Part shown: piece by piece, positions 7,531 to 36,179 of the stretch | Layout of the letters: every line of letters starts with the position of its first letter | Position numbering within the stretch: the first letter of the stretch is position 1 | Origin: Eledone cirrhosa | Taxonomy: Eukaryota | Assembly: GCA_964016885.1 (NCBI GenBank) | Contig: OZ024758.1 | Location: forward strand, 1,612,001-1,676,000 | Direction: 5' to 3' | DNA: 64,000 bases | The notes under the pieces: model-generated | The model's database searches: none | What the model saw: the letters and a program-made list of their open reading frames with translations, nothing else | Told to the model about the DNA's origin: nothing | Made by a program: the position numbers and the translations under genes

Positions 7531-7615
7531 TATCTATTTATCTATCTATCTATATATCTGTCTATCTATCTATTCATCTATCCATCCATATATCTATCTA
7601 TCTATCTATTTATCT

Positions 7616-13259: not shown

Positions 13260-13483
13260 AATTTCTGTTTATTTGCCACTAGGGCACAAAAGAAAGGGAC
13301 ATGTACATGGGTGGGGGGAGTTTACATAAAAATCGAGTAAGAAAAATATAACAAACAAAATAATAACAAGAAGGTCCTCAATAGGGAGGGATCGTTTTGG
13401 GGTCACACACACCCCCGAAAAAAAGTGTGCGACCCTTCTCCACGGGAGCACAAAGAGAGGGTGCTCCCTTCTTTCTGTTCCAC

Positions 13484-16400
13484 CTACAGGCTGAGGTAGA
13501 GAGAAGGCCCATTCACACGGGCCATTCTCGCAACTTTCACCCACCTTTCATAAAACTGGCTGGAGTGGAGCACCTCTCTCTCCATCCTGATCCTTCTTCC
13601 GAAATGGTATCGGAAGAAAAGGACCAGTTGTTGGCCGGAGAGAAAGGTGTCCGACCTCAGCCCTTTCAGACGCGTCCACCATATAGCCTCTTTTACCATG
13701 GCTATTACACAGAGGAAGACCGCCTCTCCTTCATTTTTGAAGGGGGGAGGTGGCTTGATCGTTACAATGGACTCGGTGGTCAACCTAATTGGTCCCACCC
13801 GTGACAGCAGTCGTTCGACATAGCCCCACAGATCGGCAACGCCCGGGCAGTGCACCAATGCGTGCGCGACGGTTTCCTCGTCGCGCACGCATCTGGGACA
13901 GATCTTTTTCGAGGGGTCCCTACCCGGGCGCCCGTGTCTGTAGAGCTTATCCCGAACGGGCAGAGCCCCTCGGTAGCACTGCCAGGCCAAGGACTTCTGG
14001 AAGTTGTCCATAGGTCCCGGGCCGAAAGTCCTACCGAATAGACTGGCCAGTTCGTCCTCCTCCATGCCTAGGGCTTCTCCGAGGGCGTCGTCGCACCCGC
14101 TAACCACCAGCCCTCTATAGAATGACGAGGTGGAGTCTCCGTCGATAGCCGGGTCCGCCTGCCAGAGAGCCGTGAGCGCCTGGGCACACTCGGTGTGCCA
14201 GTCGCCCAGTTTTCTCGGTCTTTGCTTCACCCAGGACTGCAGCTCGGTGAGCGAGACGAGCCTCGGGAAGGCTCGCCTCACAAACGGGGCCCACACCGGT
14301 TGACCGGTGAGGAATACGTGGAGGTGCCTTAGCCTCAATGCGTGTTTACGCATTTTTAGCCACGGCATCCCCAGCCCTCCTTTCAAAGGGTGTTGACAGC
14401 AGATGGATCTCCTCACCAGAGGAGACCTCTTCTTCCAAAGGAAATAAAAGAGGGCGCGCTCCATTTTGGCGAGGATCTCACCCGGGCAAGGCACGACAGT
14501 CAAGCGGTAATAGATGACGGACGCTATGTAAGCATTCGCCACCTCCGCCCGACCTTTTAGGGATAGTTTGCACTCGGCCCACTTCTGGGTCAGTGCAAAC
14601 ACCCTATTCGTCACCTCACCCCAGTTTTTCTCCACCTGGAGGTCCGGTCCGAACCAGACCCCAAGCAACTTCACCGGGCCCTCCGTCCACCGTCCGACGA
14701 TACCGTCGCACGACATCGCTTTGCCCCTCCACTCGCCGAGTTGCAAAGCGACTGACTTGTCCCGGTTCAGCTTAGCCCCTGTCAACCTTTCGTACTCCTC
14801 TAGTAAGGTGCCGATTGCCTCGATTTCCGAGGCGGTCGACACCATTACTGTTACGTCATCGGCGTAGGCCGACACCGCTTTGCGCAATCCCGGTTCCAAA
14901 GGGATGCCCTGCAACAACTCCAACTTCCGCAGTAATGGCTCGAGAGTCAACACATACAGAAGGGAGGAGAGAGGGCACCCCTGTCGGATGGAGCGGGTGA
15001 TTTCGAACGGCTCCGAAAGGTAGCCGTTCACCTTGACTCTAGAGCAGATGCGGCTGCTGTGCATGGCAGTGATCCAGCCCCTGAAAACGGGTCCGAACCC
15101 AGCCGCCGCTAGCACCGCATCCAGGTAACCATGGTCCACTCTATCGAACGCTTTAGACTGATCTAAATTTATCAGGGCCCCACCAAAGCCGGGTTCGTTC
15201 CCAACCCTCTCTATGATGTATCGCATGAGGTGGAGGTTGTCGTGGATGGACCTGGACGGGATAGCGCATGTCTGCGCATCTCCCACCAGTCCCCCCACGA
15301 CAAGCGCCAACCTCTTCGCTAACACCTTCGCCAAAATCTTTAACTCTGCATTTAGCAGAGTTATGGGCCTAAAATTACTAATGTCATCCCCCTTGTTCTC
15401 GTCCTTCCTCACTAGCGAGACTACGCCCTTGGTCACAGAACAGGGAATTCTCCCGTTCTGTTGCCAGTTGCAGTAGACCGCCTCGAGGAGATCGGGGAAC
15501 AAGTCCGGCATATTAATATATAGTTCGTAGGGCAGACCATCGAGTCCTGGAGATTTGCGTTTGCCGCATAGGCTCAGCACGTCCCCTATTTCAGCAGCTG
15601 AGATCGGCCCGTCGCAGGACCTCGCCTCCCTGTCCGAAAGACGCGGCAGGCCGTCGAGGTATGGACCGAAATCCACACCTCCAACCGGCTCCCCGCCCCT
15701 CCCGAACAATTGGGCAAAGTGCCTTTGAAAGGCCTCGCACATTTGCTTAGGTTCAAGGATCAGCCGTCCATCCTGGTCTCGCAAAGACCGGATAGTGGAT
15801 TTAATCCCACTTTTCGCTTCTGTCACGCGGGCCCAGCTAACAGCTTTGGTCCCCTCGTTTCCCAGAGCACGTATTTTGCTTCGGACAACGCAGCCTTCGT
15901 GTTTCGCGTCGAAGAACTGGTTCAAGACCGTTCTCGACGCTTGCACTCTGGCCACGTTGCCGCTTCTCATTGCCTCTTCAACATTAACTACCAACTCCCT
16001 TTCCTTCCTATTTCTATCTGAGGCTAACTCCTTACTAACTCCTATTGAAACTACTCTAATCTCTCTTTTTAGAGAGCCCCACCACCTGTTGTTGACGATG
16101 GCGCCCGTCAACTGCTCCTTAACTAAGGTTCTAATCCGGTCCCTGTAAGCTCTACTTGCCGGTAAGGACAAGTTGAGCTTCCAGTAACCGGGCCCCTGCC
16201 TATGCGTTCTATCAAGGTGGACTACGCAGGTCACTAACTTGTGGTCTGAATAGCCCACCATGAGCATTTCTGGACAACTTAAAAAGTCCCTATCCTTAAT
16301 TCTAACTAAGAACCTATCTAGGTACGATCTAGATTGACCACTGTTATTTGACCAGGTCCAGGTTGGTACAGTCGGAAAATCTAGTCGGTATCTATCGGCC

Positions 16401-16921
16401 AGGTCGAATCGACCGATTAACCCCTTAAGGCTGTTACACCCCCCTCTATCGGGACATGCCCCTACATAGTCCCAACGTGCATCTAGGATACCATTCCAGT
16501 CCCCCACTAAAAGCAAGGAGCGGGACGTCCCTAGAAAAGTCTCCAGACGATGGAAGAAGTCCGACCGCATTGCCCCAAAAGGGGCGTATACGGCGACAAG
16601 CCTAAAAGCTTCGCCTTCGCCATTGCCAAGGTCCAGAACCACGAGTCGACCCTCCGGGTCCAAGTGTACCGTCTGTGTAGCGAGACCCAGATGTTTTTGC
16701 AGCAGAACGACAACCCCACCCCCACCTCCGGGCTGACAGAGAGATGCGTGCATCTCAAAGTCATCAAAGGTGGGGGTTAGCTGTCGCATGCTGCTGATCC
16801 GGGCCTCGCAAATAACCATCACATTTACACATTGTGACCTGAAGTCACTTAGAAGTTTAGCTTGCTTCCAAGGTGAGCCCAGGCCACGCGCATTTAGACA
16901 ACCCACTCTTAAGACAGCCAT
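13484..16921 (-). CDS. ORF2p: AP-like endonuclease, reverse transcriptase and C-terminal CCHC zinc finger (1145 aa)
   Basis: APE motifs LNARGL, E, GDWN, LDRF and SDH; Tx1-typical GPGYWKLN; RT motifs KSPGLDG, FRPITLLN, KAFDRV, QGCPLS and YADD; CPRC-x8-H-x4-C. Confidence 0.97.
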   Translation of the reverse strand: MAVLRVGCLNARGLGSPWKQAKLLSDFRSQCVNVMVICEARISSMRQLTPTFDDFEMHASLCQPGGGGGVVVLLQKHLGLATQTVHLDPEGRLVVLDLGNGEGEAFRLVAVYAPFGAMRSDFFHRLETFLGTSRSLLLVGDWNGILDARWDYVGACPDRGGCNSLKGLIGRFDLADRYRLDFPTVPTWTWSNNSGQSRSYLDRFLVRIKDRDFLSCPEMLMVGYSDHKLVTCVVHLDRTHRQGPGYWKLNLSLPASRAYRDRIRTLVKEQLTGAIVNNRWWGSLKREIRVVSIGVSKELASDRNRKERELVVNVEEAMRSGNVARVQASRTVLNQFFDAKHEGCVVRSKIRALGNEGTKAVSWARVTEAKSGIKSTIRSLRDQDGRLILEPKQMCEAFQRHFAQLFGRGGEPVGGVDFGPYLDGLPRLSDREARSCDGPISAAEIGDVLSLCGKRKSPGLDGLPYELYINMPDLFPDLLEAVYCNWQQNGRIPCSVTKGVVSLVRKDENKGDDISNFRPITLLNAELKILAKVLAKRLALVVGGLVGDAQTCAIPSRSIHDNLHLMRYIIERVGNEPGFGGALINLDQSKAFDRVDHGYLDAVLAAAGFGPVFRGWITAMHSSRICSRVKVNGYLSEPFEITRSIRQGCPLSSLLYVLTLEPLLRKLELLQGIPLEPGLRKAVSAYADDVTVMVSTASEIEAIGTLLEEYERLTGAKLNRDKSVALQLGEWRGKAMSCDGIVGRWTEGPVKLLGVWFGPDLQVEKNWGEVTNRVFALTQKWAECKLSLKGRAEVANAYIASVIYYRLTVVPCPGEILAKMERALFYFLWKKRSPLVRRSICCQHPLKGGLGMPWLKMRKHALRLRHLHVFLTGQPVWAPFVRRAFPRLVSLTELQSWVKQRPRKLGDWHTECAQALTALWQADPAIDGDSTSSFYRGLVVSGCDDALGEALGMEEDELASLFGRTFGPGPMDNFQKSLAWQCYRGALPVRDKLYRHGRPGRDPSKKICPRCVRDEETVAHALVHCPGVADLWGYVERLLSRVGPIRLTTESIVTIKPPPPFKNEGEAVFLCVIAMVKEAIWWTRLKGLRSDTFLSGQQLVLFFRYHFGRRIRMEREVLHSSQFYERWVKVARMARVNGPSLYLSL

Positions 16922-16944
16922 GTTGGTGGCAAAGAAAGAGGCAC

Positions 16945-18702
16945 TTACCTCTCTGCGTCCCGGGGTTCGGGTCGCTCAGTTTCCATGGGGCTGGTGGCGG
17001 GGTTGACGGGTGGGGTGGTGGTTTGTGGTGGTGTGGGGGTATTGGTGTGTGGAGGGGTTGGGATCTTTGGAGTTGTGTGGGTGTTTGAGGAGGGGAGGGG
17101 AAAACCTTTCAGGAGGACGCGGTTGAGTGGCCTGGTGCAGGGTGGGCCCACGTCCTCAGGGTACATGTCTTTTAAAGTTTTAAAAATGTCAAGTGGGATT
17201 TTCACCATTTTCAGGTTAGGGAGCCCCATTGCCGTTACGAAATTCGGCCCTTCGGTTTGTATCGAAGGGTTGGTTTCTATTTTTAAAGTTAGGTTTTCAT
17301 TGTTTTTGTTTATGTATGTGTAGAGTTTTTGTGTTGTTGTGTTTGTTTTTGCTTGTTGTTGTTGAGTGAGTTTGCGTTTTATTGTCTGTGTTGTGTTGTC
17401 AGGTGGGGTTATTTTTGTTGTTGTGGTGTGTGTACGTTTTTTTCTTTTCACTTTTTGGAAGGGAGCCCCCTCGTCTTCCGACGATATGAGCTCCTCTTCC
17501 GTATTGGAGGGGAGGGGTATATCTCCGGGTTGTGTATGAACTGTTTTTGTATTTGTGTTCTGTGGGGTGGGGCTGGGTGGGACCGTGTTTTGGGTTGTTT
17601 TCTTGAGCTGTTGTTGATGTTGTTGTTGTTGTGGTGGTGGTGGTGGTGTTGTTGTTGGTTTTTGTTGTTCTGGTGGTGATGGTAGTGTATTTTGTTGTTT
17701 TTGTGATGGTGGTGCTGGTTGTTTTTGTTGTTGTTGTGGTGTTTGTAGCAGTGGTTTTTTTGTTGTTAGTAGAGGGCAGGCCGTCCTCAGGTGACCTCTG
17801 CCAGCGCAGTGGTAACATGAGGGTCTCCTGCCTTCCACTGTGATATTTATGTAGGTTCGCCCATCCAGTAGCACTCGGTCGGGTATTCCGGAGATTCTCT
17901 CAGGTGTCATCTGTAAGAGAACCTCCAGACTTTTCCCCCCGAACAGTCCACTGGTGGACTCCCCTGCTGAAATTAGTATGTCCTTATCTAGGTCGGTAAA
18001 TCCTGTTAGGACGGACCAGATGTTAATTTCTGGCGTAGGGCTCCACATTCTTATCCTTTGTGTTCTTCTTCCTTTATATGTGGGGAAGAAGGTGTATTGT
18101 GGTGACACTATAGGTGCCACCGAATATTTCTGAGCCAGCATTTCGTCCTTCATTCGGACCATAATGCTGGCATACAGCTTTCCTCTTTGAATAAAGAGTA
18201 TGTCATTTTTAATTTCTTTCAGAACCAGCTCGATTTGACTTTCGGTCAATTGCGCTGGCTTTCTCGTTTCGTTGGTTATGGTTCTGAAGCTTACGGTATT
18301 CTTGTAAATCTGTTCACGCACTTCTTCTGGGGAGTTGATCGTAAAAGAACCATCCACCCCAAAAGATACGTATTTTCTAGCCTCTAGCAAATTTTCCTTG
18401 GCGTTCGTGATGTCAATGGCTTTGTACTCCGTGGCTCTCTTGAGTGTTTGGGCAAAAGAAATTTTGTCTTTGTTTGTTGTTGTAATGTTGTTGGTTTCCT
18501 TATTTGTGGTGTTATTTTTTTCTTGAAAATTAATTTTTTCATTTGAATTGAAATTCTTTTTTTCATTGGAGAGGAGGGGTTGTTCAACAGTTTGAACTGT
18601 TGTTCCCTCTTTCCCGCTTGTTTTTTTGGTCGGCGTGGCGTTCGCTTCCAATATGGCGATATCGTTTTCGACGATATCGTTATCAACGATATCGATAAAC
18701 AT
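16945..18702 (-). CDS. ORF1p: gag-like nucleic-acid-binding protein (585 aa)
   Basis: Single CX2CX4HX4C knuckle (CYHCAGRGHLRTAC), Q/P/T-rich disordered region and basic KVKRKKR. Lies upstream of ORF2 and is intact in both copies. Confidence 0.92.
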   Translation of the reverse strand: MFIDIVDNDIVENDIAILEANATPTKKTSGKEGTTVQTVEQPLLSNEKKNFNSNEKINFQEKNNTTNKETNNITTTNKDKISFAQTLKRATEYKAIDITNAKENLLEARKYVSFGVDGSFTINSPEEVREQIYKNTVSFRTITNETRKPAQLTESQIELVLKEIKNDILFIQRGKLYASIMVRMKDEMLAQKYSVAPIVSPQYTFFPTYKGRRTQRIRMWSPTPEINIWSVLTGFTDLDKDILISAGESTSGLFGGKSLEVLLQMTPERISGIPDRVLLDGRTYINITVEGRRPSCYHCAGRGHLRTACPLLTTKKPLLQTPQQQQKQPAPPSQKQQNTLPSPPEQQKPTTTPPPPPQQQQHQQQLKKTTQNTVPPSPTPQNTNTKTVHTQPGDIPLPSNTEEELISSEDEGAPFQKVKRKKRTHTTTTKITPPDNTTQTIKRKLTQQQQAKTNTTTQKLYTYINKNNENLTLKIETNPSIQTEGPNFVTAMGLPNLKMVKIPLDIFKTLKDMYPEDVGPPCTRPLNRVLLKGFPLPSSNTHTTPKIPTPPHTNTPTPPQTTTPPVNPATSPMETERPEPRDAER

Positions 18703-18717
18703 TTCTCAAATATTTAT

Positions 18718-18741
18718 TTTTCACCCCAAAAGGGGTGAAAA
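18718..18741 (-). promoter_or_regulatory. Perfect 10-bp stem-loop in the 5'UTR, about 15 nt before the ORF1 ATG (also at 32625-32648)
   Basis: TTTTCACCCC-AAAA-GGGGTGAAAA. Function is inferred only. Confidence 0.5.
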
Positions 18742-18876
18742 TATATTTACCCGACGTCTAGAGTCCCAGACTAGGGGTTACAGTTAATTATACAAAATAA
18801 TTCAAAAAAATCCACTCACAAAATTAGCAGGTAAAAATCCAAATCACAGAGCGATATGACACACGTCTACTATCCT

Positions 18877-21800
18877 CAGACAGACAGACAGACAGACAGA
18901 TGGACTGACAGACAGATGGACTGACAGACAGATGGACTGACAGACAGGTGGACTGACAGACAGATGGACAGACAGACAGGTGGACTGACAGACAGGTGGA
19001 CAGACAGACAGGTGGACTGACAGACAGGTGGACTGACAGACAGACAGATGGACTGACAGACAGATGGACTGACAGACAGGTGGACAGACAGACAGGTGGA
19101 GTGACAGACAGGTGGACTGACAGACAGGTGGACAGACAGACAGGTGGACTGACAGACAGGTGGACTGACAGACAGGTGGACTGACAGACAGGTGGACTGA
19201 CAGACAGGTGGACAGACAGACAGGTGGACTGACAGACAGGTGGACTGACAGACAGACAGATGGACTGACAGACAGATGGACTGACAGACAGATGGACTGA
19301 CAGACAGGTGGACTGACAGACAGGTGGACTGACAGACAGACAGATGGACTGACAGACAGGTGGACTGACAGACAGACAGGTGGACTGACAGACAGGTGGA
19401 CTGACAGACAGGTGGACTGACAGACAGACAGGTGGACTGACAGACAGGTGGACTGACAGACAGACAGGTGGACTGACAGACAGACAGGTGGACTGACAGA
19501 CAGGTGGACTGACAGACAGACAGATGGACTGACAGACAGGTGGACTGACAGACAGATGGACTGACAGACAGGTGGACTGACAGACAGACAGGTGGACTGA
19601 CAGACAGGTGGACTGACAGACAGGTGGACTGACAGACAGACAGGTGGACTGACAGACAGATGGACTGACAGACAGATGGACTGACAGACAGATGGACTGA
19701 CAGACAGATGGACTGACAGACAGACAGATGGACTGACAGACAGATGGACTGACAGACAGATGGACTGACAGACAGATGGACTGACAGACAGACAGGTGGA
19801 CTGACAGACAGACAGATGGACTGACAGACAGGTGGACTGACATACAGACAGGTGGACTGACAGACAGACAGATGGACTGACAGACAGGTGGACTGACAGA
19901 CAGACAGGTGGACTGACAGACAGACAGATGGACTGACAGACAGGTGAACTGACAGACAGACAGATGGACTGACAGACAGGTGGACTGACAGACAGATGGA
20001 CTGACAGACAGGTGGACTGACAGACAGATGGACTGACAGACAGGTGGACTGACAGACAGATGGACTGACAGACAGGTGGACTGACAGACAGGTGGACTGA
20101 CAGACAGGTGGACTGACAGACAGGTGGACTGACAGACAGACAGGTGGACTGACAGACAGACAGATGGACTGACAGACAGACAGGTGGACTGACAGACAGG
20201 TGGACTGACAGACAGGTGGACTGACAGACAGGTGGACTGACAGACAGGTGGACTGACAGACAGGTGGACTGACAGACAGACAGGTGGACTGACAGACAGA
20301 CAGATGGACTGACAGACAGGTGGACTGACAGACAGACAGGTGGACTGACAGACAGACAGATGGACTGACAGACAGGTGGACTGACAGACAGACAGATGGA
20401 CTGACAGACAGGTGGACTGACAGACAGACAGATGGACTGACAGACAGGTGGACTGACAGACAGGTGGACTGACAGACAGACAGGTGGACTGACAGACAGA
20501 CAGGTGGACTGACAGACAGACAGGTGGACTGACAGACAGACAGGTGGACTGACAGACAGGTGGACTGACAGACAGACAGGTGGACTGACAGACAGGTGGA
20601 CTGACAGACAGACAGGTGGACTGACAGACAGGTGGACTGACAGACAGACAGGTGGACTGACAGACAGACAGATGGACTGACAGACAGGTGGACTGACAGA
20701 CAGGTAGACTGACAGACAGGTGGACCGACAGACAGGTGGACTGACAGACAGGTGGACTGACAGACAGACAGGTGGACTGACAGACAGACAGATGGACTGA
20801 CAGACAGGTGGACTGACAGACAGGTGGACTGACAGACAGGTGGACTGACAGACAGGTGGACTGACAGACAGGTGGACTGACAGACAGACAGGTGGACTGA
20901 CAGACAGACAGATGGACTGACAGACAGGTGGACTGACAGACAGGTGGACTGACAGACAGATGGACTGACAGACAGATGGACTGACAGACAGGTGGACTGA
21001 CAGACAGATGGACTGACAGACAGATGGACTGACAGACAGGTGGACTGACAGACAGGTGGACTGACAGACAGATGGACTGACAGACAGATGGACTGACAGA
21101 CAGGTGGACTGACAGACAGATGGACTAACAGAGAGGTGGACTGACAGACAGGTGAACTGACAGACAGATGGACTGACAGACAGATGGACTGACAGACAGG
21201 TGGACTGACAGACAGATGGACTGACAGACAGATGGACTGACAGACAGATGGACTGACAGACAGATGGACTGACAGACAGATGGACTGACAGACAGGTGGA
21301 CTGACAGACAGATGGACTGACAGACAGATGGACTGACAGACAGGTGGACTGACAGACAGATGGACTGACAGACAGATGGACTGACAGACAGATGGACTGA
21401 CAGACAGGTGGACTGACAGATTGATGGACTGACAGACATATGGACTGACAGACAGATGGACTGACAGACAGATGGACTGACAGACAGGTGGACTGACAGA
21501 CAGATGGACTGACAGACAGATGGACTGACAGACAGGTGGACTGACAGACAGATGGACTGACAGACAGATAGATTGACAGACAGGTGGACTGACAGACAGA
21601 TGGACTGACAGACAGATGGACTGACAGACAGATGGACTGACAGACAGGTGGACTGACAGACAGATGGACTGACAGACAGATGGACTGACAGACAGATGGA
21701 CTGACAGACAGATGGACTGACAGACAGGTGGACTGACAGACAGATGGACTGACAGACAGATGGACTGACAGACAGATGGACTGACAGACAGATGGACTGA

Positions 21801-24800
21801 CAGACAGGTGGACTGACAGACAGGTGGACTGACAGACAGATGGACTGACAGACAGATGGACTGACAGACAGATGGACTGACAGACAGATGGACTGACAGA
21901 CAGATGGACTGACAGACAGATGGACTGACAGACAGGTGGACTGACAGACAGATGGACTGACAGACAGGTGGACTGACAGACAGGTGGACTGACAGACAGA
22001 TGGACTGACAGACAGATGGACTGACAGACAGATGGACTGACAGACAGATGGACTGACAGACAGGTGGACTGACAGACAGACAGATGGACTGACAGACAGA
22101 CAGGTGGACTGACAGACAGGTGGACTGACAGACAGATGGACTGACAGACAGATGGACTGACAGACAGGTGGACTGACAGACAGGTGGACTGACAGACAGG
22201 TGGACTGACAGACAGGTGGACTGACAGACAGGTGGACTGACAGACAGACAGATGGACTGACAGACAGGTGGACTGACAGACAGGTGGACTGTCAGACAGG
22301 TGGCCTGACAGACAGACAGATGGACTGACAGACAGATGGACTGACAGACAGATGGACTGACAGACAGGTGGACTGACAGACAGATGGACAGACAGACAGG
22401 TGGACTGACAGACAGGTGGACAGACAGACAGGTGGACTGACAGACAGGTGGACTGACAGACAGACAGATGGACTGACAGACAGATGGACTGACAGACAGG
22501 TGGACAGACAGACAGGTGGAGTGACAGACAGGTGGACTGACAGACAGGTGGACAGACAGACAGGTGGACTGACAGACAGGTGGACTGACAGACAGGTGGA
22601 CTGACAGACAGGTGGACTGACAGACAGGTGGACAGACAGACAGGTGGACTGACAGACAGGTGGACTGACAGACAGACAGATGGACTGACAGACAGATGGA
22701 CTGACAGACAGATGGACTGACAGACAGGTGGACTGACAGACAGGTGGACTGACAGACAGACAGATGGACTGACAGACAGGTGGACTGACAGACAGACAGG
22801 TGGACTGACAGACAGGTGGACTGACAGACAGGTGGACTGACAGACAGACAGGTGGACTGACAGACAGGTGGACTGACAGACAGACAGGTGGACTGACAGA
22901 CAGACAGGTGGACTGACAGACAGGTGGACTGACAGACAGACAGATGGACTGACAGACAGGTGGACTGACAGACAGATGGACTGACAGACAGGTGGACTGA
23001 CAGACAGACAGGTGGACTGACAGACAGGTGGACTGACAGACAGGTGGACTGACAGACAGACAGGTGGACTGACAGACAGATGGACTGACAGACAGATGGA
23101 CTGACAGACAGATGGACTGACAGACAGATGGACTGACAGACAGACAGATGGACTGACAGACAGATGGACTGACAGACAGATGGACTGACAGACAGATGGA
23201 CTGACAGACAGACAGGTGGACTGACAGACAGATGGACTGACAGACAGATGGACTGACAGACAGACAGATGGACTGACAGACAGATGGACTGACAGACAGA
23301 TGGACTGACAGACAGATGGACTGACAGACAGACAGATGGACTGACATACAGATGGACTGACAGACAGATGGACTGACAGACAGATGGACTGACAGACAGA
23401 TGGACTGACAGACAGATGGGCTGACAGACAGACAGGTGGACTGACAGACAGATGGACTGACAGACAGATGGACTGACAGACAGACAGATGGACTGACAGA
23501 CAGATGGACTGACAGACAGATGGACTGACAGACAGATGGACTGACAGACAGATGGACTGACAGACAGATGGACTGACAGACAGACAGATGGACTGACAGA
23601 CAGATGGACTGACAGACAGATGGACTGACAGACAGACAGATGGACTGACAGACAGATGGACTGACAGACAGATGGACTGACAGACAGATGGACTGACAGA
23701 CAGACAGGTGGACTGACAGACAGATGGACTGACAGACAGATGGACTGACAGACAGACAGATGGACTGACAGACAGATGGACTGACAGACAGATGGACTGA
23801 CAGACAGATGGACTGACAGACAGACAGATGGACTGACAGACAGACAGATGGACTGAGAGACAGATGGACTGACAGACAGACAGATGGACTGACAGACAGA
23901 CAGATGGATTGAGAGACAGACAGATGGACTGAGAGACAGACAGATGGACTGACAGATGGACTGACAGACAGACAGATGGACTGACAGACAGACAGACAGA
24001 CATATGGACTGACAGACAAACAGACAGATGGACTGACAGACAGACAGACAGACAGATGGACTGACAGACAGACAGATGGACTGACAGACAGACAGATGGA
24101 CTGAGAGACAGATGGACTGACAGACAGACAGATGGACTGACAGACAGACATATGGACTGACAGACAGACAGATGGACTGAGAGACAGACAGATGGACTGA
24201 CAGACAGACAGATGGACTGACAGACAGACAGATGGACTGAGAGACAGACAGATGGACTGACAGACAGACAGATGGACTGACAGACAGACAGATGGACTGA
24301 CAGACAGACAGATGGACTGAGAGACAGACAGATGGACTGACAGACAGACAGATGGACTGACAGACAGATGGACTGACAGACAGACAGATGGACTGACAGA
24401 CAGATGGACTGACAGACAGACAGATGGACTGACAGACAGACAGATGGACTGACAGACAGACAGATGGACTGACAGACAGACAGATGGACTGACAGACAGA
24501 CAGATGGACTGACAGACAGATGGACTGAGAGACAGACAGATGGACTGACAGACAGACAGATGGACTGAGAGACAGACAGATGGACTGACAGACAGACAGA
24601 TGGACTGACAGACAGACAGATGGACTGACAGACAGACAGATGGACTGACAGACAGACAGATGGACTGACAGACAGACAGATGGACTGACAGACAGACAGA
24701 CAGATGGACTGACAGACAAACAGACAGATGGACTGACAGACAGACAGACAGACAGATGGACTGACAGACAGATGGACTGACAGACAGACAGATGGACTGA

Positions 24801-27166
24801 CAGACAGACAGATGGACTGAGAGACAGACAGATGGACTGACAGACAGACAGATGGACTGACAGACAGACAGATGGACTGAGAGACAGACAGATGGACTGA
24901 CAGACAGACAGATGGACTGAGAGACAGACAGATGGACTGACAGACAGACAGATGGACTGAGAGACAGACAGATGGACTGACAGACAGACAGATGGACTGA
25001 CAGACAGACAGATGGACTGAGAGACAGACAGATGGACTGACAGACAGACAGATGGACTGAGAGACAGACAGATGGACTGACAGACAGACAGATGGACTGA
25101 CAGACAGACAGATGGACTGAGAGACAGATGGACTGACAGACAGACAGATGGACTGACAGACAGACAGATGGACTGAGAGACAGACAGATGGACTAACAGA
25201 CAGACAGATGGACTGAGAGACAGACAGATTGACTGACAGACAGACAGATGGACTGACAGACAGACAGATGGACTGACAGACAGACAGATGGACTGACAGA
25301 CAGACAGATGGACTGACAGACAGACAGATGGACTGACAGACAGACAGACAGATGGACTGACAGACAAACAGACAGATGGACTGACAGACAGACAGACAGA
25401 CAGATGGACTGACAGACAGACAGATGGACTTACAGACAGACAGATGGACTGACAGACAGACAGATGGACTGACAGACAGATGGACTGACAGACAGACAGA
25501 TGGACTGACAGACAGACAGATGGACTGACAGACAGGTGGACTGACAGACAGGTAGACTGACAGACAGGTGGACCGACAGACAGGTGGACTGACAGACAGG
25601 TGGACTGACAGACAGACAGGTGGACTGACAGACAGACAGATGGACTGACAGACAGGTGGACTGACAGACAGGTGGACTGACAGACAGGTGGACTGACAGA
25701 CAGGTGGACTGACAGACAGGTGGACTGACAGACAGACAGGTGGACTGACAGACAGACAGATGGACTGACAGACAGGTGGACTGACAGACAGGTGGACTGA
25801 CAGACAGATGGACTGACAGACAGATGGACTGACAGACAGGTGGACTGACAGACAGATGGACTGACAGACAGATGGACTGACAGACAGGTGGACTGACAGA
25901 CAGGTGGACTGACAGACAGATGGACTGACAGACAGATGGACTGACAGACAGGTGGACTGACAGACAGATGGACTAACAGAGAGGTGGACTGACAGACAGG
26001 TGAACTGACAGACAGATGGACTGACAGACAGATGGACTGACAGACAGGTGGACTGACAGACAGATGGACTGACAGACAGATGGACTGACAGACAGATGGA
26101 CTGACAGACAGATGGACTGACAGACAGATGGACTGACAGACAGGTGGACTGACAGACAGATGGACTGACAGACAGATGGACTGACAGACAGGTGGACTGA
26201 CAGACAGATGGACTGAGAGACAGATGGACTGACAGACAGATGGACTGACAGACAGGTGGACTGACAGATTGATGGACTGACAGACATATGGACTGACAGA
26301 CAGATGGACTGACAGACAGATGGACTGACAGACAGGTGGACTGACAGACAGATGGACTGACAGACAGATGGACTGACAGACAGGTGGACTGACAGACAGA
26401 TGGACTGACAGACAGATAGATTGACAGACAGGTGGACTGACAGACAGATGGACTGACAGACAGATGGACTGACAGACAGATGGACTGACAGACAGGTGGA
26501 CTGACAGACAGATGGACTGACAGACAGATGGACTGACAGACAGATGGACTGACAGACAGATGGACTGACAGACAGGTGGACTGACAGACAGATGGACTGA
26601 CAGACAGATGGACTGACAGACAGATGGACTGACAGACAGATGGACTGACAGACAGGTGGACTGACAGACAGGTGGACTGACAGACAGATGGACTGACAGA
26701 CAGATGGACTGACAGACAGATGGACTGACAGACAGATGGACTGACAGACAGATGGACTGACAGACAGATGGACTGACAGACAGGTGGACTGACAGACAGA
26801 TGGACTGACAGACAGGTGGACTGACAGACAGGTGGACTGACAGACAGATGGACTGACAGACAGATGGACTGACAGACAGATGGACTGACAGACAGATGGA
26901 CTGACAGACAGGTGGACTGACAGACAGACAGATGGACTGACAGACAGACAGGTGGACTGACAGACAGGTGGACTGACAGACAGATGGACTGACAGACAGA
27001 TGGACTGACAGACAGGTGGACTGACAGACAGGTGGACTGACAGACAGGTGGACTGACAGACAGGTGGACTGACAGACAGGTGGACTGACAGACAGACAGA
27101 TGGACTGACAGACAGGTGGACTGACAGACAGGTGGACTGACAGACAGGTGGCCTGACAGACAGACA
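18877..27166. repeat. GACA satellite array 2 (8.3 kb) with kb-scale higher-order repeats
   Basis: Rare variants recur at fixed offsets: GGCCTG at 22304/27152 and the GGACTAACAGAGAG block at 21125/25973 (offset 4848); block 18996/22416 (offset 3420). Confidence 0.98.
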
Positions 27167-27390
27167 AATTTCTGTTTATTTGCCACTAGGGCACAAAAGA
27201 AAGGGACATGTACATGGGTGGGGGGAGTTTACATAAAAATCGAGTAAGAAAAATATAACAAACAAAATAATAACAAGAAGGTCCTCAATAGGGAGGGATC
27301 GTTTTGGGGTCACACACACCCCCGAAAAAAAGTGTGCGACCCTTCTCCACGGGAGCACAAAGAGAGGGTGCTCCCTTCTTTCTGTTCCAC

Positions 27391-30300
27391 CTACAGGCTG
27401 AGGTAGAGAGAAGGCCCATTCACACGGGCCATTCTCGCAACTTTCACCCACCTTTCATAAAACTGGCTGGAGTGGAGCACCTCTCTCTCCATCCTGATCC
27501 TTCTTCCGAAATGGTATCGGAAGAAAAGGACCAGTTGTTGGCCGGAGAGAAAGGTGTCCGACCTCAGCCCTTTCAGACGCGTCCACCATATAGCCTCTTT
27601 TACCATGGCTATTACACAGAGGAAGACCGCCTCTCCTTCATTTTTGAAGGGGGGAGGTGGCTTGATCGTTACAATGGACTCGGTGGTCAACCTAATTGGT
27701 CCCACCCGTGACAGCAGTCGTTCGACATAGCCCCACAGATCGGCAACGCCCGGGCAGTGCACCAATGCGTGCGCGACGGTTTCCTCGTCGCGCACGCATC
27801 TGGGACAGATCTTTTTCGAGGGGTCCCTACCCGGGCGCCCGTGTCTGTAGAGCTTATCCCGAACGGGCAGAGCCCCTCGGTAGCACTGCCAGGCCAAGGA
27901 CTTCTGGAAGTTGTCCATAGGTCCCGGGCCGAAAGTCCTACCGAATAGACTGGCCAGTTCGTCCTCCTCCATGCCTAGGGCTTCTCCGAGGGCGTCGTCG
28001 CACCCGCTAACCACCAGCCCTCTATAGAATGACGAGGTGGAGTCTCCGTCGATAGCCGGGTCCGCCTGCCAGAGAGCCGTGAGCGCCTGGGCACACTCGG
28101 TGTGCCAGTCGCCCAGTTTTCTCGGTCTTTGCTTCACCCAGGACTGCAGCTCGGTGAGCGAGACGAGCCTCGGGAAGGCTCGCCTCACAAACGGGGCCCA
28201 CACCGGTTGACCGGTGAGGAATACGTGGAGGTGCCTTAGCCTCAATGCGTGTTTACGCATTTTTAGCCACGGCATCCCCAGCCCTCCTTTCAAAGGGTGT
28301 TGACAGCAGATGGATCTCCTCACCAGAGGAGACCTCTTCTTCCAAAGGAAATAAAAGAGGGCGCGCTCCATTTTGGCGAGGATCTCACCCGGGCAAGGCA
28401 CGACAGTCAAGCGGTAATAGATGACGGACGCTATGTAAGCATTCGCCACCTCCGCCCGACCTTTTAGGGATAGTTTGCACTCGGCCCACTTCTGGGTCAG
28501 TGCAAACACCCTATTCGTCACCTCACCCCAGTTTTTCTCCACCTGGAGGTCCGGTCCGAACCAGACCCCAAGCAACTTCACCGGGCCCTCCGTCCACCGT
28601 CCGACGATACCGTCGCACGACATCGCTTTGCCCCTCCACTCGCCGAGTTGCAAAGCGACTGACTTGTCCCGGTTCAGCTTAGCCCCTGTCAACCTTTCGT
28701 ACTCCTCTAGTAAGGTGCCGATTGCCTCGATTTCCGAGGCGGTCGACACCATTACTGTTACGTCATCGGCGTAGGCCGACACCGCTTTGCGCAATCCCGG
28801 TTCCAAAGGGATGCCCTGCAACAACTCCAACTTCCGCAGTAATGGCTCGAGAGTCAACACATACAGAAGGGAGGAGAGAGGGCACCCCTGTCGGATGGAG
28901 CGGGTGATTTCGAACGGCTCCGAAAGGTAGCCGTTCACCTTGACTCTAGAGCAGATGCGGCTGCTGTGCATGGCAGTGATCCAGCCCCTGAAAACGGGTC
29001 CGAACCCAGCCGCCGCTAGCACCGCATCCAGGTAACCATGGTCCACTCTATCGAACGCTTTAGACTGATCTAAATTTATCAGGGCCCCACCAAAGCCGGG
29101 TTCGTTCCCAACCCTCTCTATGATGTATCGCATGAGGTGGAGGTTGTCGTGGATGGACCTGGACGGGATAGCGCATGTCTGCGCATCTCCCACCAGTCCC
29201 CCCACGACAAGCGCCAACCTCTTCGCTAACACCTTCGCCAAAATCTTTAACTCTGCATTTAGCAGAGTTATGGGCCTAAAATTACTAATGTCATCCCCCT
29301 TGTTCTCGTCCTTCCTCACTAGCGAGACTACGCCCTTGGTCACAGAACAGGGAATTCTCCCGTTCTGTTGCCAGTTGCAGTAGACCGCCTCGAGGAGATC
29401 GGGGAACAAGTCCGGCATATTAATATATAGTTCGTAGGGCAGACCATCGAGTCCTGGAGATTTGCGTTTGCCGCATAGGCTCAGCACGTCCCCTATTTCA
29501 GCAGCTGAGATCGGCCCGTCGCAGGACCTCGCCTCCCTGTCCGAAAGACGCGGCAGGCCGTCGAGGTATGGACCGAAATCCACATTTCCAACCGGCTCCC
29601 CGCCCCTCCCGAACAATTCGGCAAAGTGCCTTTGAAAGGCCTCGCACATTTGCTTAGGTTCAAGGATCAGCCGTCCATCCTGGTCTCGCAAAGACCGGAT
29701 AGTGGATTTAATCCCACTTTTCGCTTCTGTCACGCGGGCCCAGCTAACAGCTTTGGTCCCCTCGTTTCCCAGAGCACGTATTTTGCTTCGGACAACGCAG
29801 CCTTCGTGTTTCGCGTCGAAGAACTGGTTCAAGACCGTTCTCGACGCTTGCACTCTGGCCACGTTGCCGCTTCTCATTGCCTCTTCAACATTAACTACCA
29901 ACTCCCTTTCCTTCCTATTTCTATCTGAGGCTAACTCCTTACTAACTCCTATTGAAACTACTCTAATCTCTCTTTTTAGAGAGCCCCACCACCTGTTGTT
30001 GACGATGGCGCCCGTCAACTGCTCCTTAACTAAGGTTCTAATCCGGTCCCTGTAAGCTCTACTTGCCGGTAAGGACAAGTTGAGCTTCCAGTAACCGGGC
30101 CCCTGCCTATGCGTTCTATCAAGGTGGACTACGCAGGTCACTAACTTGTGGTCTGAATAGCCCACCATGAGCATTTCTGGACAACTTAAAAAGTCCCTAT
30201 CCTTAATTCTAACTAAGAACCTATCTAGGTACGATCTAGATTGACCACTGTTATTTGACCAGGTCCAGGTTGGTACAGTCGGAAAATCTAGTCGGTATCT

Positions 30301-30828
30301 ATCGGCCAGGTCGAATCGGCCGATTAACCCCTTAAGGCTGTTACACCCCCCTCTATCGGGACATGCCCCTACATAGTCCCAACGTGCATCTAGGATACCA
30401 TTCCAGTCCCCCACTAAAAGCAAGGAGCGGGACGTCCCTAGAAAAGTCTCCAGACGATGGAAGAAGTCCGACCGCATTGCCCCAAAAGGGGCGTATACGG
30501 CGACAAGCCTAAAAGCTTCGCCTTCGCCATTGCCAAGGTCCAGAACCACGAGTCGACCCTCCGGGTCCAAGTGTACCGTCTGTGTAGCGAGACCCAGATG
30601 TTTTTGCAGCAGAACGACAACCCCACCCCCACCTCCGGGCTGACAGAGAGATGCGTGCATCTCAAAGTCATCAAAGGTGGGGGTTAGCTGTCGCATGCTG
30701 CTGATCCGGGCCTCGCAAATAACCATCACATTTACACATTGTGACCTGAGGTCACTTAGAAGTTTAGCTTGCTTCCAAGGTGAGCCCAGGCCACGCGCAT
30801 TTAGACAACCCACTCTTAAGACAGCCAT
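27391..30828 (-). CDS. ORF2p (APE-RT-zinc finger), copy 2, 1145 aa
   Basis: Same motifs as copy 1. Differs at SD(F/L)R, FA(Q/E)L and VG(G/N)V. Confidence 0.97.
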   Translation of the reverse strand: MAVLRVGCLNARGLGSPWKQAKLLSDLRSQCVNVMVICEARISSMRQLTPTFDDFEMHASLCQPGGGGGVVVLLQKHLGLATQTVHLDPEGRLVVLDLGNGEGEAFRLVAVYAPFGAMRSDFFHRLETFLGTSRSLLLVGDWNGILDARWDYVGACPDRGGCNSLKGLIGRFDLADRYRLDFPTVPTWTWSNNSGQSRSYLDRFLVRIKDRDFLSCPEMLMVGYSDHKLVTCVVHLDRTHRQGPGYWKLNLSLPASRAYRDRIRTLVKEQLTGAIVNNRWWGSLKREIRVVSIGVSKELASDRNRKERELVVNVEEAMRSGNVARVQASRTVLNQFFDAKHEGCVVRSKIRALGNEGTKAVSWARVTEAKSGIKSTIRSLRDQDGRLILEPKQMCEAFQRHFAELFGRGGEPVGNVDFGPYLDGLPRLSDREARSCDGPISAAEIGDVLSLCGKRKSPGLDGLPYELYINMPDLFPDLLEAVYCNWQQNGRIPCSVTKGVVSLVRKDENKGDDISNFRPITLLNAELKILAKVLAKRLALVVGGLVGDAQTCAIPSRSIHDNLHLMRYIIERVGNEPGFGGALINLDQSKAFDRVDHGYLDAVLAAAGFGPVFRGWITAMHSSRICSRVKVNGYLSEPFEITRSIRQGCPLSSLLYVLTLEPLLRKLELLQGIPLEPGLRKAVSAYADDVTVMVSTASEIEAIGTLLEEYERLTGAKLNRDKSVALQLGEWRGKAMSCDGIVGRWTEGPVKLLGVWFGPDLQVEKNWGEVTNRVFALTQKWAECKLSLKGRAEVANAYIASVIYYRLTVVPCPGEILAKMERALFYFLWKKRSPLVRRSICCQHPLKGGLGMPWLKMRKHALRLRHLHVFLTGQPVWAPFVRRAFPRLVSLTELQSWVKQRPRKLGDWHTECAQALTALWQADPAIDGDSTSSFYRGLVVSGCDDALGEALGMEEDELASLFGRTFGPGPMDNFQKSLAWQCYRGALPVRDKLYRHGRPGRDPSKKICPRCVRDEETVAHALVHCPGVADLWGYVERLLSRVGPIRLTTESIVTIKPPPPFKNEGEAVFLCVIAMVKEAIWWTRLKGLRSDTFLSGQQLVLFFRYHFGRRIRMEREVLHSSQFYERWVKVARMARVNGPSLYLSL

Positions 30829-30851
30829 GTTGGTGGCAAAGAAAGAGGCAC

Positions 30852-32609
30852 TTACCTCTCTGCGTCCCGGGGTTCGGGTCGCTCAGTTTCCATGGGGCTG
30901 GTGGCGGGGTTGATGGGTGGGGTGGTGGTTTGTGGTGGTGTGGGGGTATTGGTGTGTGGAGGGGTTGGGATCTTTGGAGTTGTGTGGGTGTTTGAGGAGG
31001 GGAGGGGAAAACCTTTCAGGAGGACGCGGTTGAGTGGCCTGGTGCAGGGTGGGCCCACGTCCTCAGGGTACATGTCTTTTAAAGTTTTAAAAATGTCAAG
31101 TGGGATTTTCACCATTTTCAGGTTAGGGAGCCCCATTGCCGTTACGAAATTCGGCCCTTCGGTTTGTATCGAAGGGTTGGTTTCTATTTTTAAAGTTAGG
31201 TTTTCATTGTTTTTGTTTATGTATGTGTAGAGTTTTTGTGTTGTTGTGTTTGTTTTTGCTTGTTGTTGTTGAGTGAGTTTGCGTTTTATTGTCTGTGTTG
31301 TGTTGTCAGGTGGGGTTATTTTTGTTGTTGTGGTGTGTGTACGTTTTTTTCTTTTCACTTTTTGGAAGGGAGCCCCCTCGTCTTCCGACGATATGAGCTC
31401 CTCTTCCGTATTGGAGGGGAGGGGTATATCTCCGGGTTGTGTATGAACTGTTTTTGTATTTGTGTTCTGTGGGGTGGGGCTGGGTGGGACCGTGTTTTGG
31501 GTTGTTTTCTTGAGCTGTTGTTGATGTTGTTGTTGTTGTGGTGGTGGTGGTGGTGTTGTTGTTGGTTTTTGTTGTTCTGGTGGTGATGGTAGTGTATTTT
31601 GTTGTTTTTGTGATGGTGGTGCTGGTTGTTTTTGTTGTTGTTGTGGTGTTTGTAGCAGTGGTTTTTTTGTTGTTAGTAGAGGGCAGGCCGTCCTCAGGTG
31701 ACCTCTGCCAGCGCAGTGGTAACATGAGGGTCTCCTGCCTTCCACTGTGATATTTATGTAGGTTCGCCCATCCAGTAGCACTCGGTCGGGTATTCCGGAG
31801 ATTCTCTCAGGTGTCATCTGTAAGAGAACCTCCAGACTTTTCCCCCCGAACAGTCCACTGGTGGACTCCCCTGCTGAAATTAGTATGTCCTTATCTAGGT
31901 CGGTAAATCCTGTTAGGACGGACCAGATGTTAATTTCTGGCGTAGGGCTCCACATTCTTATCCTTTGTGTTCTTCTTCCTTTATATGTGGGGAAGAAGGT
32001 GTATTGTGGTGACACTATAGGTGCCACCGAATATTTCTGAGCCAGCATTTCGTCCTTCATTCGGACCATAATGCTGGCATACAGCTTTCCTCTTTGAATA
32101 AAGAGTATGTCATTTTTAATTTCTTTCAGAACCAGCTCGATTTGACTTTCGGTCAATTGCGCTGGCTTTCTCGTTTCGTTGGTTATGGTTCTGAAGCTTA
32201 CGGTATTCTTGTAAATCTGTTCACGCACTTCTTCTGGGGAGTTGATCGTAAAAGAACCATCCACCCCAAAAGATACGTATTTTCTAGCCTCTAGCAAATT
32301 TTCCTTGGCGTTCGTGATGTCAATGGCTTTGTACTCCGTGGCTCTCTTGAGTGTTTGGGCAAAAGAAATTTTGTCTTTGTTTGTTGTTGTAATGTTGTTG
32401 GTTTCCTTATTTGTGGTGTTATTTTTTTCTTGAAAATTAATTTTTTCATTTGAATTGAAATTCTTTTTTTCATTGGAGAGGAGGGGTTGTTCAACAGTTT
32501 GAACTGTTGTTCCCTCTTTCCCGCTTGTTTTTTTGGTCGGCGTGGCGTTCGCTTCCAATATGGCGATATCGTTTTCGACGATATCGTTATCAACGATATC
32601 GATAAACAT
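30852..32609 (-). CDS. ORF1p (CCHC knuckle), copy 2, 585 aa
   Basis: Identical to copy 1 apart from PP(V/I)NP. Confidence 0.92.
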   Translation of the reverse strand: MFIDIVDNDIVENDIAILEANATPTKKTSGKEGTTVQTVEQPLLSNEKKNFNSNEKINFQEKNNTTNKETNNITTTNKDKISFAQTLKRATEYKAIDITNAKENLLEARKYVSFGVDGSFTINSPEEVREQIYKNTVSFRTITNETRKPAQLTESQIELVLKEIKNDILFIQRGKLYASIMVRMKDEMLAQKYSVAPIVSPQYTFFPTYKGRRTQRIRMWSPTPEINIWSVLTGFTDLDKDILISAGESTSGLFGGKSLEVLLQMTPERISGIPDRVLLDGRTYINITVEGRRPSCYHCAGRGHLRTACPLLTTKKPLLQTPQQQQKQPAPPSQKQQNTLPSPPEQQKPTTTPPPPPQQQQHQQQLKKTTQNTVPPSPTPQNTNTKTVHTQPGDIPLPSNTEEELISSEDEGAPFQKVKRKKRTHTTTTKITPPDNTTQTIKRKLTQQQQAKTNTTTQKLYTYINKNNENLTLKIETNPSIQTEGPNFVTAMGLPNLKMVKIPLDIFKTLKDMYPEDVGPPCTRPLNRVLLKGFPLPSSNTHTTPKIPTPPHTNTPTPPQTTTPPINPATSPMETERPEPRDAER

Positions 32610-32783
32610 TTCTCAAATATTTATTTTTCACCCCAAAAGGGGTGAAAATATATTTACCCGACGTCTAGAGTCCCAGACTAGGGGTTACAGTTAATTATAC
32701 AAAATAATTCAAAAAAATCCACTCACAAAATTAGCAGGTAAAAATCCAAATCACAGAGCGATATGACACACGTCTACTATCCT

Positions 32784-35700
32784 CAGACAGACAGACAGAC
32801 AGACAGATGGACTGACAGACAGATGGACTGACAGACAGATGGACTGACAGACAGGTGGACTGACAGACAGATGGACAGACAGACAGGTGGACTGACAGAC
32901 AGGTGGACAGACAGACAGGTGGACTGACAGACAGGTGGACTGACAGACAGACAGATGGACTGACAGACAGATGGACTGACAGACAGGTGGACAGACAGAC
33001 AGGTGGAGTGACAGACAGGTGGACTGACAGACAGGTGGACAGACAGACAGGTGGACTGACAGACAGGTGGACTGACAGACAGGTGGACTGACAGACAGGT
33101 GGACTGACAGACAGGTGGACAGACAGACAGGTGGACTGACAGACAGGTGGACTGACAGACAGACAGATGGACTGACAGACAGATGGACTGACAGACAGAT
33201 GGACTGACAGACAGGTGGACTGACAGACAGGTGGACTGACAGACAGACAGATGGACTGACAGACAGGTGGACTGACAGACAGACAGGTGGACTGACAGAC
33301 AGGTGGACTGACAGACAGGTGGACTGACAGACAGACAGGTGGACTGACAGACAGGTGGACTGACAGACAGACAGGTGGACTGACAGACAGACAGGTGGAC
33401 TGACAGACAGGTGGACTGACAGACAGACAGATGGACTGACAGACAGGTGGACTGACAGACAGATGGACTGACAGACAGGTGGACTGACAGACAGACAGGT
33501 GGACTGACAGACAGGTGGACTGACAGACAGGTGGACTGACAGACAGACAGGTGGACTGACAGACAGATGGACTGACAGACAGATGGACTGACAGACAGAT
33601 GGACTGACAGACAGATGGACTGACAGACAGACAGATGGACTGACAGACAGATGGACTGACAGACAGATGGACTGACAGACAGATGGACTGACAGACAGAC
33701 AGGTGGACTGACAGACAGATGGACTGACAGACAGATGGACTGACAGACAGACAGATGGACTGACAGACAGATGGACTGACAGACAGATGGACTGACAGAC
33801 AGATGGACTGACAGACAGACAGATGGACTGACATACAGATGGACTGACAGACAGATGGACTGACAGACAGATGGACTGACAGACAGATGGACTGACAGAC
33901 AGATGGGCTGACAGACAGACAGGTGGACTGACAGACAGATGGACTGACAGACAGATGGACTGACAGACAGACAGATGGACTGACAGACAGATGGACTGAC
34001 AGACAGATGGACTGACAGACAGATGGACTGACAGACAGATGGACTGACAGACAGATGGACTGACAGACAGACAGATGGACTGACAGACAGATGGACTGAC
34101 AGACAGATGGACTGACAGACAGACAGATGGACTGACAGACAGATGGACTGACAGACAGATGGACTGACAGACAGATGGACTGACAGACAGACAGGTGGAC
34201 TGACAGACAGATGGACTGACAGACAGATGGACTGACAGACAGACAGATGGACTGACAGACAGATGGACTGACAGACAGATGGACTGACAGACAGATGGAC
34301 TGACAGACAGACAGATGGACTGACAGACAGACAGATGGACTGAGAGACAGATGGACTGACAGACAGACAGATGGACTGACAGACAGACAGATGGATTGAG
34401 AGACAGACAGATGGACTGAGAGACAGACAGATGGACTGACAGATGGACTGACAGACAGACAGATGGACTGACAGACAGACAGACAGACATATGGACTGAC
34501 AGACAAACAGACAGATGGACTGACAGACAGACAGACAGACAGATGGACTGACAGACAGACAGATGGACTGACAGACAGACAGATGGACTGAGAGACAGAT
34601 GGACTGACAGACAGACAGATGGACTGACAGACAGACATATGGACTGACAGACAGACAGATGGACTGAGAGACAGACAGATGGACTGACAGACAGACAGAT
34701 GGACTGACAGACAGACAGATGGACTGAGAGACAGACAGATGGACTGACAGACAGACAGATGGACTGACAGACAGACAGATGGACTGACAGACAGACAGAT
34801 GGACTGAGAGACAGACAGATGGACTGACAGACAGACAGATGGACTGACAGACAGATGGACTGACAGACAGACAGATGGACTGACAGACAGATGGACTGAC
34901 AGACAGACAGATGGACTGACAGACAGACAGATGGACTGACAGACAGACAGATGGACTGACAGACAGACAGATGGACTGACAGACAGACAGATGGACTGAC
35001 AGACAGATGGACTGAGAGACAGACAGATGGACTGACAGACAGACAGATGGACTGAGAGACAGACAGATGGACTGACAGACAGACAGATGGACTGACAGAC
35101 AGACAGATGGACTGACAGACAGACAGATGGACTGACAGACAGACAGATGGACTGACAGACAGACAGACAGATGGACTGACAGACAAACAGACAGATGGAC
35201 TGACAGACAGACAGACAGACAGATGGACTGACAGACAGATGGACTGACAGACAGACAGATGGACTGACAGACAGACAGATGGACTGAGAGACAGACAGAT
35301 GGACTGACAGACAGACAGATGGACTGACAGACAGACAGATGGACTGAGAGACAGACAGATGGACTGACAGACAGACAGATGGACTGAGAGACAGACAGAT
35401 GGACTGACAGACAGACAGATGGACTGAGAGACAGACAGATGGACTGACAGACAGACAGATGGACTGACAGACAGACAGATGGACTGAGAGACAGACAGAT
35501 GGACTGACAGACAGACAGATGGACTGAGAGACAGACAGATGGACTGACAGACAGACAGATGGACTGACAGACAGACAGATGGACTGAGAGACAGATGGAC
35601 TGACAGACAGACAGATGGACTGACAGACAGACAGATGGACTGAGAGACAGACAGATGGACTAACAGACAGACAGATGGACTGAGAGACAGACAGATTGAC

Positions 35701-36116
35701 TGACAGACAGACAGATGGACTGACAGACAGACAGATGGACTGACAGACAGACAGATGGACTGACAGACAGACAGATGGACTGACAGACAGACAGATGGAC
35801 TGACAGACAGACAGACAGATGGACTGACAGACAAACAGACAGATGGACTGACAGACAGACAGACAGACAGATGGACTGACAGACAGACAGATGGACTTAC
35901 AGACAGACAGATGGACTGACAGACAGACAGATGGACTGACAGACAGATGGACTGACAGACAGACAGATGGACTGACAGACAGACAGATGGACTGAGAGAC
36001 AGACAGATGGACTGACAGACAGACAGATGGACTGACAGACAGACAGATGGACTGACAGACAGACAGATGGACTGAGAGACAGACAGATGGACTGACAGAC
36101 AGATGGACTGACAGAG
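32784..36116. repeat. GACA satellite array 3, ending in mostly 20-bp GA(C/G)A-GACA-GACA-GATGGACT units
   Basis: About 32790-35950 is a near copy of about 22310-25480 (shared CATACA, GGGCTG, GGATTGAG, ACAAAC and GGACTTAC variants). Confidence 0.98.
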
Positions 36117-36179
36117 AGATAAAAAGGGAGAACGGGGGATCAATAGAGAGAAAGATGAATAAGAGGTCATCTAAAATAG

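Follow-up and report, generated by a model that had tools for sequence, protein, structure and literature searches.

Introduction

Several families of Tx1 retrotransposons target microsatellites: Kibi is found in (TC)n, Koshi in (TTC)n and crocodilian Tx1 elements in (TTCC)n/(TTTC)n, a target preference being called when more than 20% of the flanks are of one repeat type (PMC4494074). The legend of Fig. 3 of the same paper also lists satellites among the targets of Tx1. Tx1 and R1 are both target-specific APE clades (PMC4640811). In the Drosophila melanogaster group, R1A insertions carry a normal target duplication together with 16-27 bp of extra target-derived sequence at the 5' junction, which is explained by target sequence that the RNA carries at its 5' end, and annealing leads to precise junctions (PMC2718515). 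Insertion with target duplication preserves the target while making a new one, so that tandem copies become possible (10.1101/158386). Flanking DNA can also be carried along: the transduction of satellite monomers by LINE-1 has been proposed in a review (PMC6947457), and 5' extensions of 31-42 nt have been described for SINEU-2 (PMC4494074). Neither an L1 or Tx1 family targeting (TGTC)n/(TATC)n nor a worked case of 5' satellite transduction turned up in the literature that we covered; both results are weak, as subscription papers and Repbase lay outside its scope, together with, for the former, the supplement and Fig. 3 of PMC4494074.

Here we describe a satellite array that holds two nearly identical LINEs, one of which has an empty twin of its insertion site in the same array. 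That insertion has a junction of a type already described. What most deserves pursuit is a 936-nt block of satellite that seems to have moved with the other copy.

Results

Two copies of a probable Tx1-like LINE interrupt a satellite array

The window, by which we mean the whole stretch of 64,000 nt analysed here, is eukaryotic DNA rich in simple repeats. Positions 10920-36120 are a satellite of 16- and 20-bp units broken up by two 5617-bp elements on the minus strand (Table 1), and the satellite between these elements consists of 8.3 kb of short repeats. Other minisatellites occur at 2-645, 38789-39477, 43983-45230 and 55572-55986, with periods of 42, 35/135, 29 and 33 bp, respectively, and a short interstitial (TAACCC)n tract of about five copies lies at 40654-40682. 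A 159-aa frame at 58967-59446 on the minus strand is presumably, by its look, the C-terminal part of another LINE ORF2, of RTE-like type.

Table 1. Features of the satellite locus and its insertions, with positions given in the window
Feature	Position	Strand	Description
Two older 5'-truncated relatives, in tandem in (TATC)n	7297..8022 (about 7351-7530, 7617-8000)	+	
Satellite array left of element 1	10920..13259		Units G(A/G)TGGACT(GACA)2-3; final unit GGTGGACT(GACA)3, without GGCCT marker
Element 1	13260..18876	-	5611/5617 identical to element 2; ORF1 (585 aa, CCHC knuckle) and ORF2 (1145 aa, same domains as in element 2) open
Block beside element 1	18877..19812		936 nt (54 units) identical to the 5' junction and flank of element 2; putative 5'-transduced satellite
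Native array continuation beyond the 936-nt block	19795..20652		Rare marker units, elsewhere only at 12272-12712
Block L, left duplication arm, empty copy	20653..22318		2 mismatches to 25501-27166
Empty target unit GGTGGCCT(GACA)3	22299..22318	+	Uninterrupted twin of the insertion site
Block R, right duplication arm, empty copy	22319..25528		Overlaps the beginning of L' by its final 28 nt
Block L', left flank of element 2	25501..27166		Terminates in GGTGGCCT(GACA)3
Element 2, full-length 5617-bp L1-group LINE (probable class)	27167..32783	-	No poly(A); 3' end AATAAA-CAGAAATT immediately adjoining (TGTC)3
Element 2 ORF2, 1145 aa	27391..30828	-	APE endonuclease, reverse transcriptase, zf-RVT (Pfam)
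Element 2 ORF1, 585 aa	30852..32609	-	CX2CX4HX4C knuckle, read from the translation
Element 2 5' junction run CA(GACA)5	32784..32805	+	Target duplication of at most 12 nt, and 10 nt or more of additional sequence
Block R' and natural satellite end	32806..36120		

The domains of ORF2 were matched by PF03372 (E = 1.5e-6), PF00078 (E = 1.3e-26) and PF13966 (E = 1.2e-5, below its curated cut-off). Its best PDB match is human L1 ORF2p (E = 1.9e-50, residues 7-858), while R2 proteins scored 3.8e-18 or weaker in what is a small comparison set of 10 matched PDB sequences. ORF2 thus joins an APE endonuclease, a reverse transcriptase nearer to L1 than to the R2 type and a C-terminal zinc-binding region, in an element with two ORFs, no LTRs and frequent 5' truncation, as in the L1 group. 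A Pfam search of ORF1 returned no family and detected no RRM domains; a CCHC knuckle such as that of ORF1 is typical of Tx1. The searches brought up no named Tx1 protein, 10 of the 92 matches having been looked up in one of them. The endonuclease loop has 9 residues between T189 and S199 and aligns without gaps to the loop of L1; it differs in this from Tx1L, whose B6-B5 hairpin loop has 11 residues, a Tx1L feature that is not known to define the clade (PMC1950540). From these sequence features the element is probably a Tx1-like LINE of the L1 group.

The read runs examined (4 of the 15 listed) show a large family with a strong 3' bias. In run X1 the depth, which as contig depth is not a copy number, is several hundred times lower at the 5' end of the element than at its 3' end. 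Its 3' end (27167-27190 and relatives) has a short GTGCC...AATAAA motif and no poly(A) tail, and this is common to the old copies and to a relative of 40% identity described below. A short hairpin precedes AATAAA, with mostly weak folding z-scores. Folding of the termini gave z between -0.7 and -1.3 for four of the five sequences and -2.5 for one old copy, from which we claim no structure. A search of the 5' end of the element against Rfam gave seven matches, all far below the gathering score, and no ribozyme; the exact 3'-end pattern had no match in viral contigs.

An empty twin of the element 2 insertion site

The satellite contains a duplication of 4848 bp, of which one arm holds element 2 and the other is empty at 22307-22318, so that the window reads L-R-L'-element 2-R'. 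The variant GGTGGCCT, reported in an earlier note as marking both arms, does occur exactly twice in the window, at 22299-22306 and 27147-27154. The empty site reads CCT-(GACA)3-GATGGACT (22304-22326) and the filled one, as had been claimed, CCT-(GACA)3-[27167..32783]-CA(GACA)5-GATGGACT. Beyond them the same block of about 3.2 kb follows: R (22319-25528) and R' (32806-35995) are identical at 3190/3190 aligned positions and differ by one indel of a whole 20-bp unit. On the other side, L and L' are unlike at 2 of 1666 positions. The alignment proposed in the earlier note, of the empty site with the joined flanks of element 2, continues across the junction and shows a single mismatch and a single gap, of 22 nt.

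As a control, 788 unit boundaries from three arrays were scored against both 1-kb flanks of element 2. Only the boundary at 22319 matched both (left 0.998, right 1.000). For the two boundaries next to it the poorer of the two flank scores was 0.89 and 0.82, and unrelated boundaries reached 0.76 at best. The empty site is a true empty paralogue of the site into which element 2 inserted.

Element 1 probably entered the array together with 54 satellite units

Elements 1 and 2 share 936 nt of 5' flank, and only 14 nt on the 3' side, where element 1 lacks the GGCCT marker; one breakpoint therefore falls within one unit of the 3' end of the element. The longest exact matches of the 18877-19812 block to arrays outside R are 117 and 101 nt. 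Element 1 carries the same CA(GACA)5 junction as element 2, and since the identity continues for 936 nt into the satellite, this is no independent confirmation of the junction at element 2.

Marker units show what lies around the block. The marker 'a4G' occurs at 12620 and 19815 and '2aga' at 12272, 12692 and 19943, that is, only to the left of element 1 and to the right of the 936-nt block, and never in L, R or R'. When element 1 and the block were excised in silico, the array rejoined to (GGa)n-4Ga, as found in the neighbouring higher-order unit, with 2-38 nt duplicated. Since the markers flank the block and its removal restores an intact repeat, element 1 and the 54 units seem to have entered as one block. 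The duplication of 2-38 nt, whose exact length cannot be fixed within the repeat, fits a single target duplication, and the outer junction is a normal (GACA)3 unit. A simple tandem duplication of 13.9 kb, comprising the element and its flank, is ruled out by the end of the identity at 19812.

The entry of element 1 with 54 units as one block, with one end at the 3' terminus of the element, is what 5' transduction from element 2 predicts. We consider such a transduction of satellite, by an RNA route, to be the likeliest cause of the block, at slightly better than even confidence. A possible but doubtful alternative accepts the empty site as genuine and moves the flank of element 1 at the DNA level, either by later gene conversion of an independent insertion from element 2, with a tract reaching 936 nt into the satellite, or by a break repair that copied element 2 whole. 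Homology between satellite units is available everywhere, and the arrays contain many duplications made at the DNA level. The differences between the elements also speak for this route. All six of them (five events) lie within 1.33 kb (15678-17007 in element 1, 29585-30914 in element 2), a clustering with P of about 0.007-0.013 under uniformity in a post hoc test; the copies are thus mosaic, and DNA-level exchange among copies occurs here, although the cluster could reflect either conversion from a third copy or a mosaic in the assembly. Each copy has retained the residue of the outgroup at one position (L27 for element 2, Q404 for element 1), so that element 1 is no clean copy of the present-day element 2. 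Against a DNA-level transfer, L' comprises about 100 units and strand invasion would have to begin in the final one, given that only 14 nt are shared, and the version with gene conversion needs two events and a native flank left intact.

Relatives of the element and a possible repeat preference

Elsewhere in the window, two older relatives with 86% identity over 184 nt lie in tandem within (TATC)n and in the same orientation relative to the repeat. Both share the terminal motif GGCAAATAAA, with (TATC)n after it. The one at 7617-8000 is bounded by an 18-bp target duplication (7599-7616 and 8001-8018), which includes a variant unit and no extra bases; this 18-mer is present only at 7599 and 8001. 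The family has four 3' ends in the window, at loci that are few and clustered, and each of them adjoins (TGTC)n or (TATC)n in one and the same orientation. Among the raw reads of run X13 there is a joint, seen in 102 reads that may come from one locus, in which a GATA/GACA spacer connects a truncated relative with a further 3' end. The two young and the two old sites, taken with this joint, suggest that the family may prefer (GAYA)n/(TRTC)n.

A relative of 40% identity forms head-to-tail arrays in what is presumed to be host DNA in a metagenome-assembled genome (MAG). Its main subfamily, to which the count was restricted, offered 22 distinct junctions, and tandem copies are not independent: 17 have a spacer of 16-18 nt, two a spacer of 24-26 nt and three precede 5'-truncated copies. 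The target of this relative is the non-repetitive 16-18-mer of the spacer and not a microsatellite, which means that repeat targeting is not clade-wide. In the MAG, titled Arenicella sp., the arrays (loci L072-L115) are made of intact L1-group LINEs with a period of 6.4-6.9 kb. They terminate in AATAAA and short spacers that differ between arrays, and presumably belong to a eukaryotic host. LINE ORF2 matches of 26-31% identity in four other prokaryotic MAGs (L110, L111, L114 and L116) are likely eukaryotic contamination. The metagenome loci L001-L071 are distant, their best segments having mostly 21-47% identity. In 12 loci inspected (11 of L001-L071 and L110) no repeat of the GACA/GATA type came after ORF2, the only runs seen there being short ones of AT, TC or CA.

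Length balance at the element 2 insertion

Compared with the 12-nt run of the empty site, the filled site has 12 nt on the left of the element and 22 nt on the right, and hence 22 nt more of GACA-phase sequence. None of the remaining 274 units in these arms differs in its GACA count, and the gain is therefore part of the insertion itself. The earlier reading of this balance as a 12-bp duplication plus about 10 nt of extra repeat holds for the two runs themselves, but not for the length of the duplication: each of the 13 possible splits between 0 and 12 nt is compatible with the sequence and those of 13-15 nt are not, which makes 12 bp an upper limit and '12 + 10' one of 13 readings. The 10 nt of that reading may partly be the 5' end of the element itself. 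Plain slippage as their source is rejected, as 10 cannot be divided by the 4-nt unit length and no other unit changed, although R and R' do contain (GACA)4-5 runs at 12 places.

Where the duplication can be read, in the older copy of the window and in the relative of 40% identity, it measures 16-18 nt. Had 18 nt been duplicated at element 2, the GGCCT marker would be present twice, and it is not, which indicates a shorter stagger or a rebuilt 5' join. Only a varying stagger or trimming of the overhang would account for the missing second GGCCT, which counts against the account preferred in the Discussion.

It had also been proposed that each insertion may lengthen its own target. Polymerase addition or slippage of GACA units at every 5' junction would make targets grow with each round of insertion, and both the tie between the extra bases and the insertion and the 7-9 extra nt at 2 of the 19 full-length junctions of the 40% relative could be read in this way. 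We judge it unlikely. A single event stands behind the gain, the junctions of elements 1 and 2 being shared by descent, and there is none at two others, the outer junction of element 1 and the 18-bp duplication of the older copy. Moreover, 17 of those 19 junctions, which as tandem copies are not independent, keep to 16-18 nt, and the 10 nt may be a fixed 5' end. A gain at each insertion beyond that of any target duplication is thus not borne out.

The empty arm as a record of the site before insertion

The empty arm very probably retains the pre-insertion sequence, and the before-and-after view that the earlier note had drawn from it survives closer inspection: the arms are 99.9-100% identical and the boundary at 22319 is unique. 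The pattern is expected from a duplication followed by insertion into one arm, or from unequal exchange between an empty and a filled allele. Each arm has one private substitution, as expected if the two copies are real.

It is quite improbable, in our view, that the tandem arose in the assembly by joining an empty to a filled haplotype. The near identity of the arms and the length of short-repeat array between the elements would favour such a join, and no spanning read was seen in the read runs examined; yet the arms are unlike at two bases and one unit, and they join in register within a unit, a configuration that fits real unequal exchange equally well. If two haplotypes were mis-joined, the empty site would be a real empty allele, which still does not refute the comparison of empty and filled sites. 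That the empty site is secondary, the filled block having been duplicated and the element then lost, is highly unlikely: recombination between (GACA)3 and (GACA)5 could leave (GACA)3, but this needs a crossover in one 12-nt run among hundreds of equally homologous units, and an additional event.

Discussion

The account towards which we lean is a target-primed LINE insertion into one arm of the satellite, followed by 5' transduction to the site of element 1. An active Tx1-like LINE of the L1 group would have entered one arm of a recently duplicated block of about 4.85 kb through target-primed reverse transcription. The (GACA)n strand would have been nicked at or within the 12-nt run, the nick positions being presumed, and would have primed cDNA synthesis from the 3' end of the RNA. 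At the 5' junction, cDNA ending in target-like repeat from an RNA leader may have been joined out of register to the duplicated run, leaving 12 + 10 nt, much as in R1A. A transcript of element 2 begun upstream in the satellite (R) could then have produced element 1 with 936 nt of satellite at its 5' end. At this second site the satellite end of the cDNA would anneal to the cut target by homology, which would leave a duplication of 2-38 nt and no extra bases. Both the satellite-containing leader and the order of events are suppositions of this scheme.

More tentatively, the element might routinely be transcribed from within the satellite that it targets and carry blocks at its 5' end. Retrotransposition would then regenerate the target and amplify and reshuffle the satellite, by 54 units in a single event and inside one array in the present case, and the 10 extra nt beside element 2 would represent a shortened version of that process.

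Empty and filled pairs can rarely be resolved in tandem repeats, and this one gives the exact net balance, +22 nt, of a microsatellite-targeted LINE insertion. Taken alone, the balance refines a known mechanism. If the 936-nt block did travel by RNA, it would exemplify the amplification of a satellite by the LINE that targets it, by a route proposed in PMC6947457. If transcription from the satellite were routine, part of its higher-order structure would have been made by reverse transcription and not by unequal exchange. Since the ORFs are open in both copies, the specificity of the endonuclease for (GAYA)n can be assayed.

The element resembles Kibi, Koshi and the crocodilian Tx1 families as an APE-type element of the L1 group with a fixed orientation in simple repeats, and differs from them in its target, here (TGTC)n/(TATC)n together with a 16/20-bp satellite that is made from it. 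With R1A it has in common a duplication accompanied by extra target-like bases at the 5' junction, as seen at element 2. R1A, however, belongs to the R1 clade and inserts into 28S rDNA, whereas the target here is a satellite and the flank that was presumably carried measures about 10 nt at element 2 and 936 nt at element 1. The double insertions treated in 10.1101/158386 have their likeness in the tandem copies at 7297-8022 and in the arrays of the 40% relative; in the system described there the element seeds the satellite, whereas here it entered, and may have copied, a satellite that already existed. Finally, as in the proposed transduction of satellite monomers and in SINEU-2, flanking DNA would travel with a retroelement, and in contrast to both the present locus offers a candidate resolved to the base, with 54 units carried on the 5' side.
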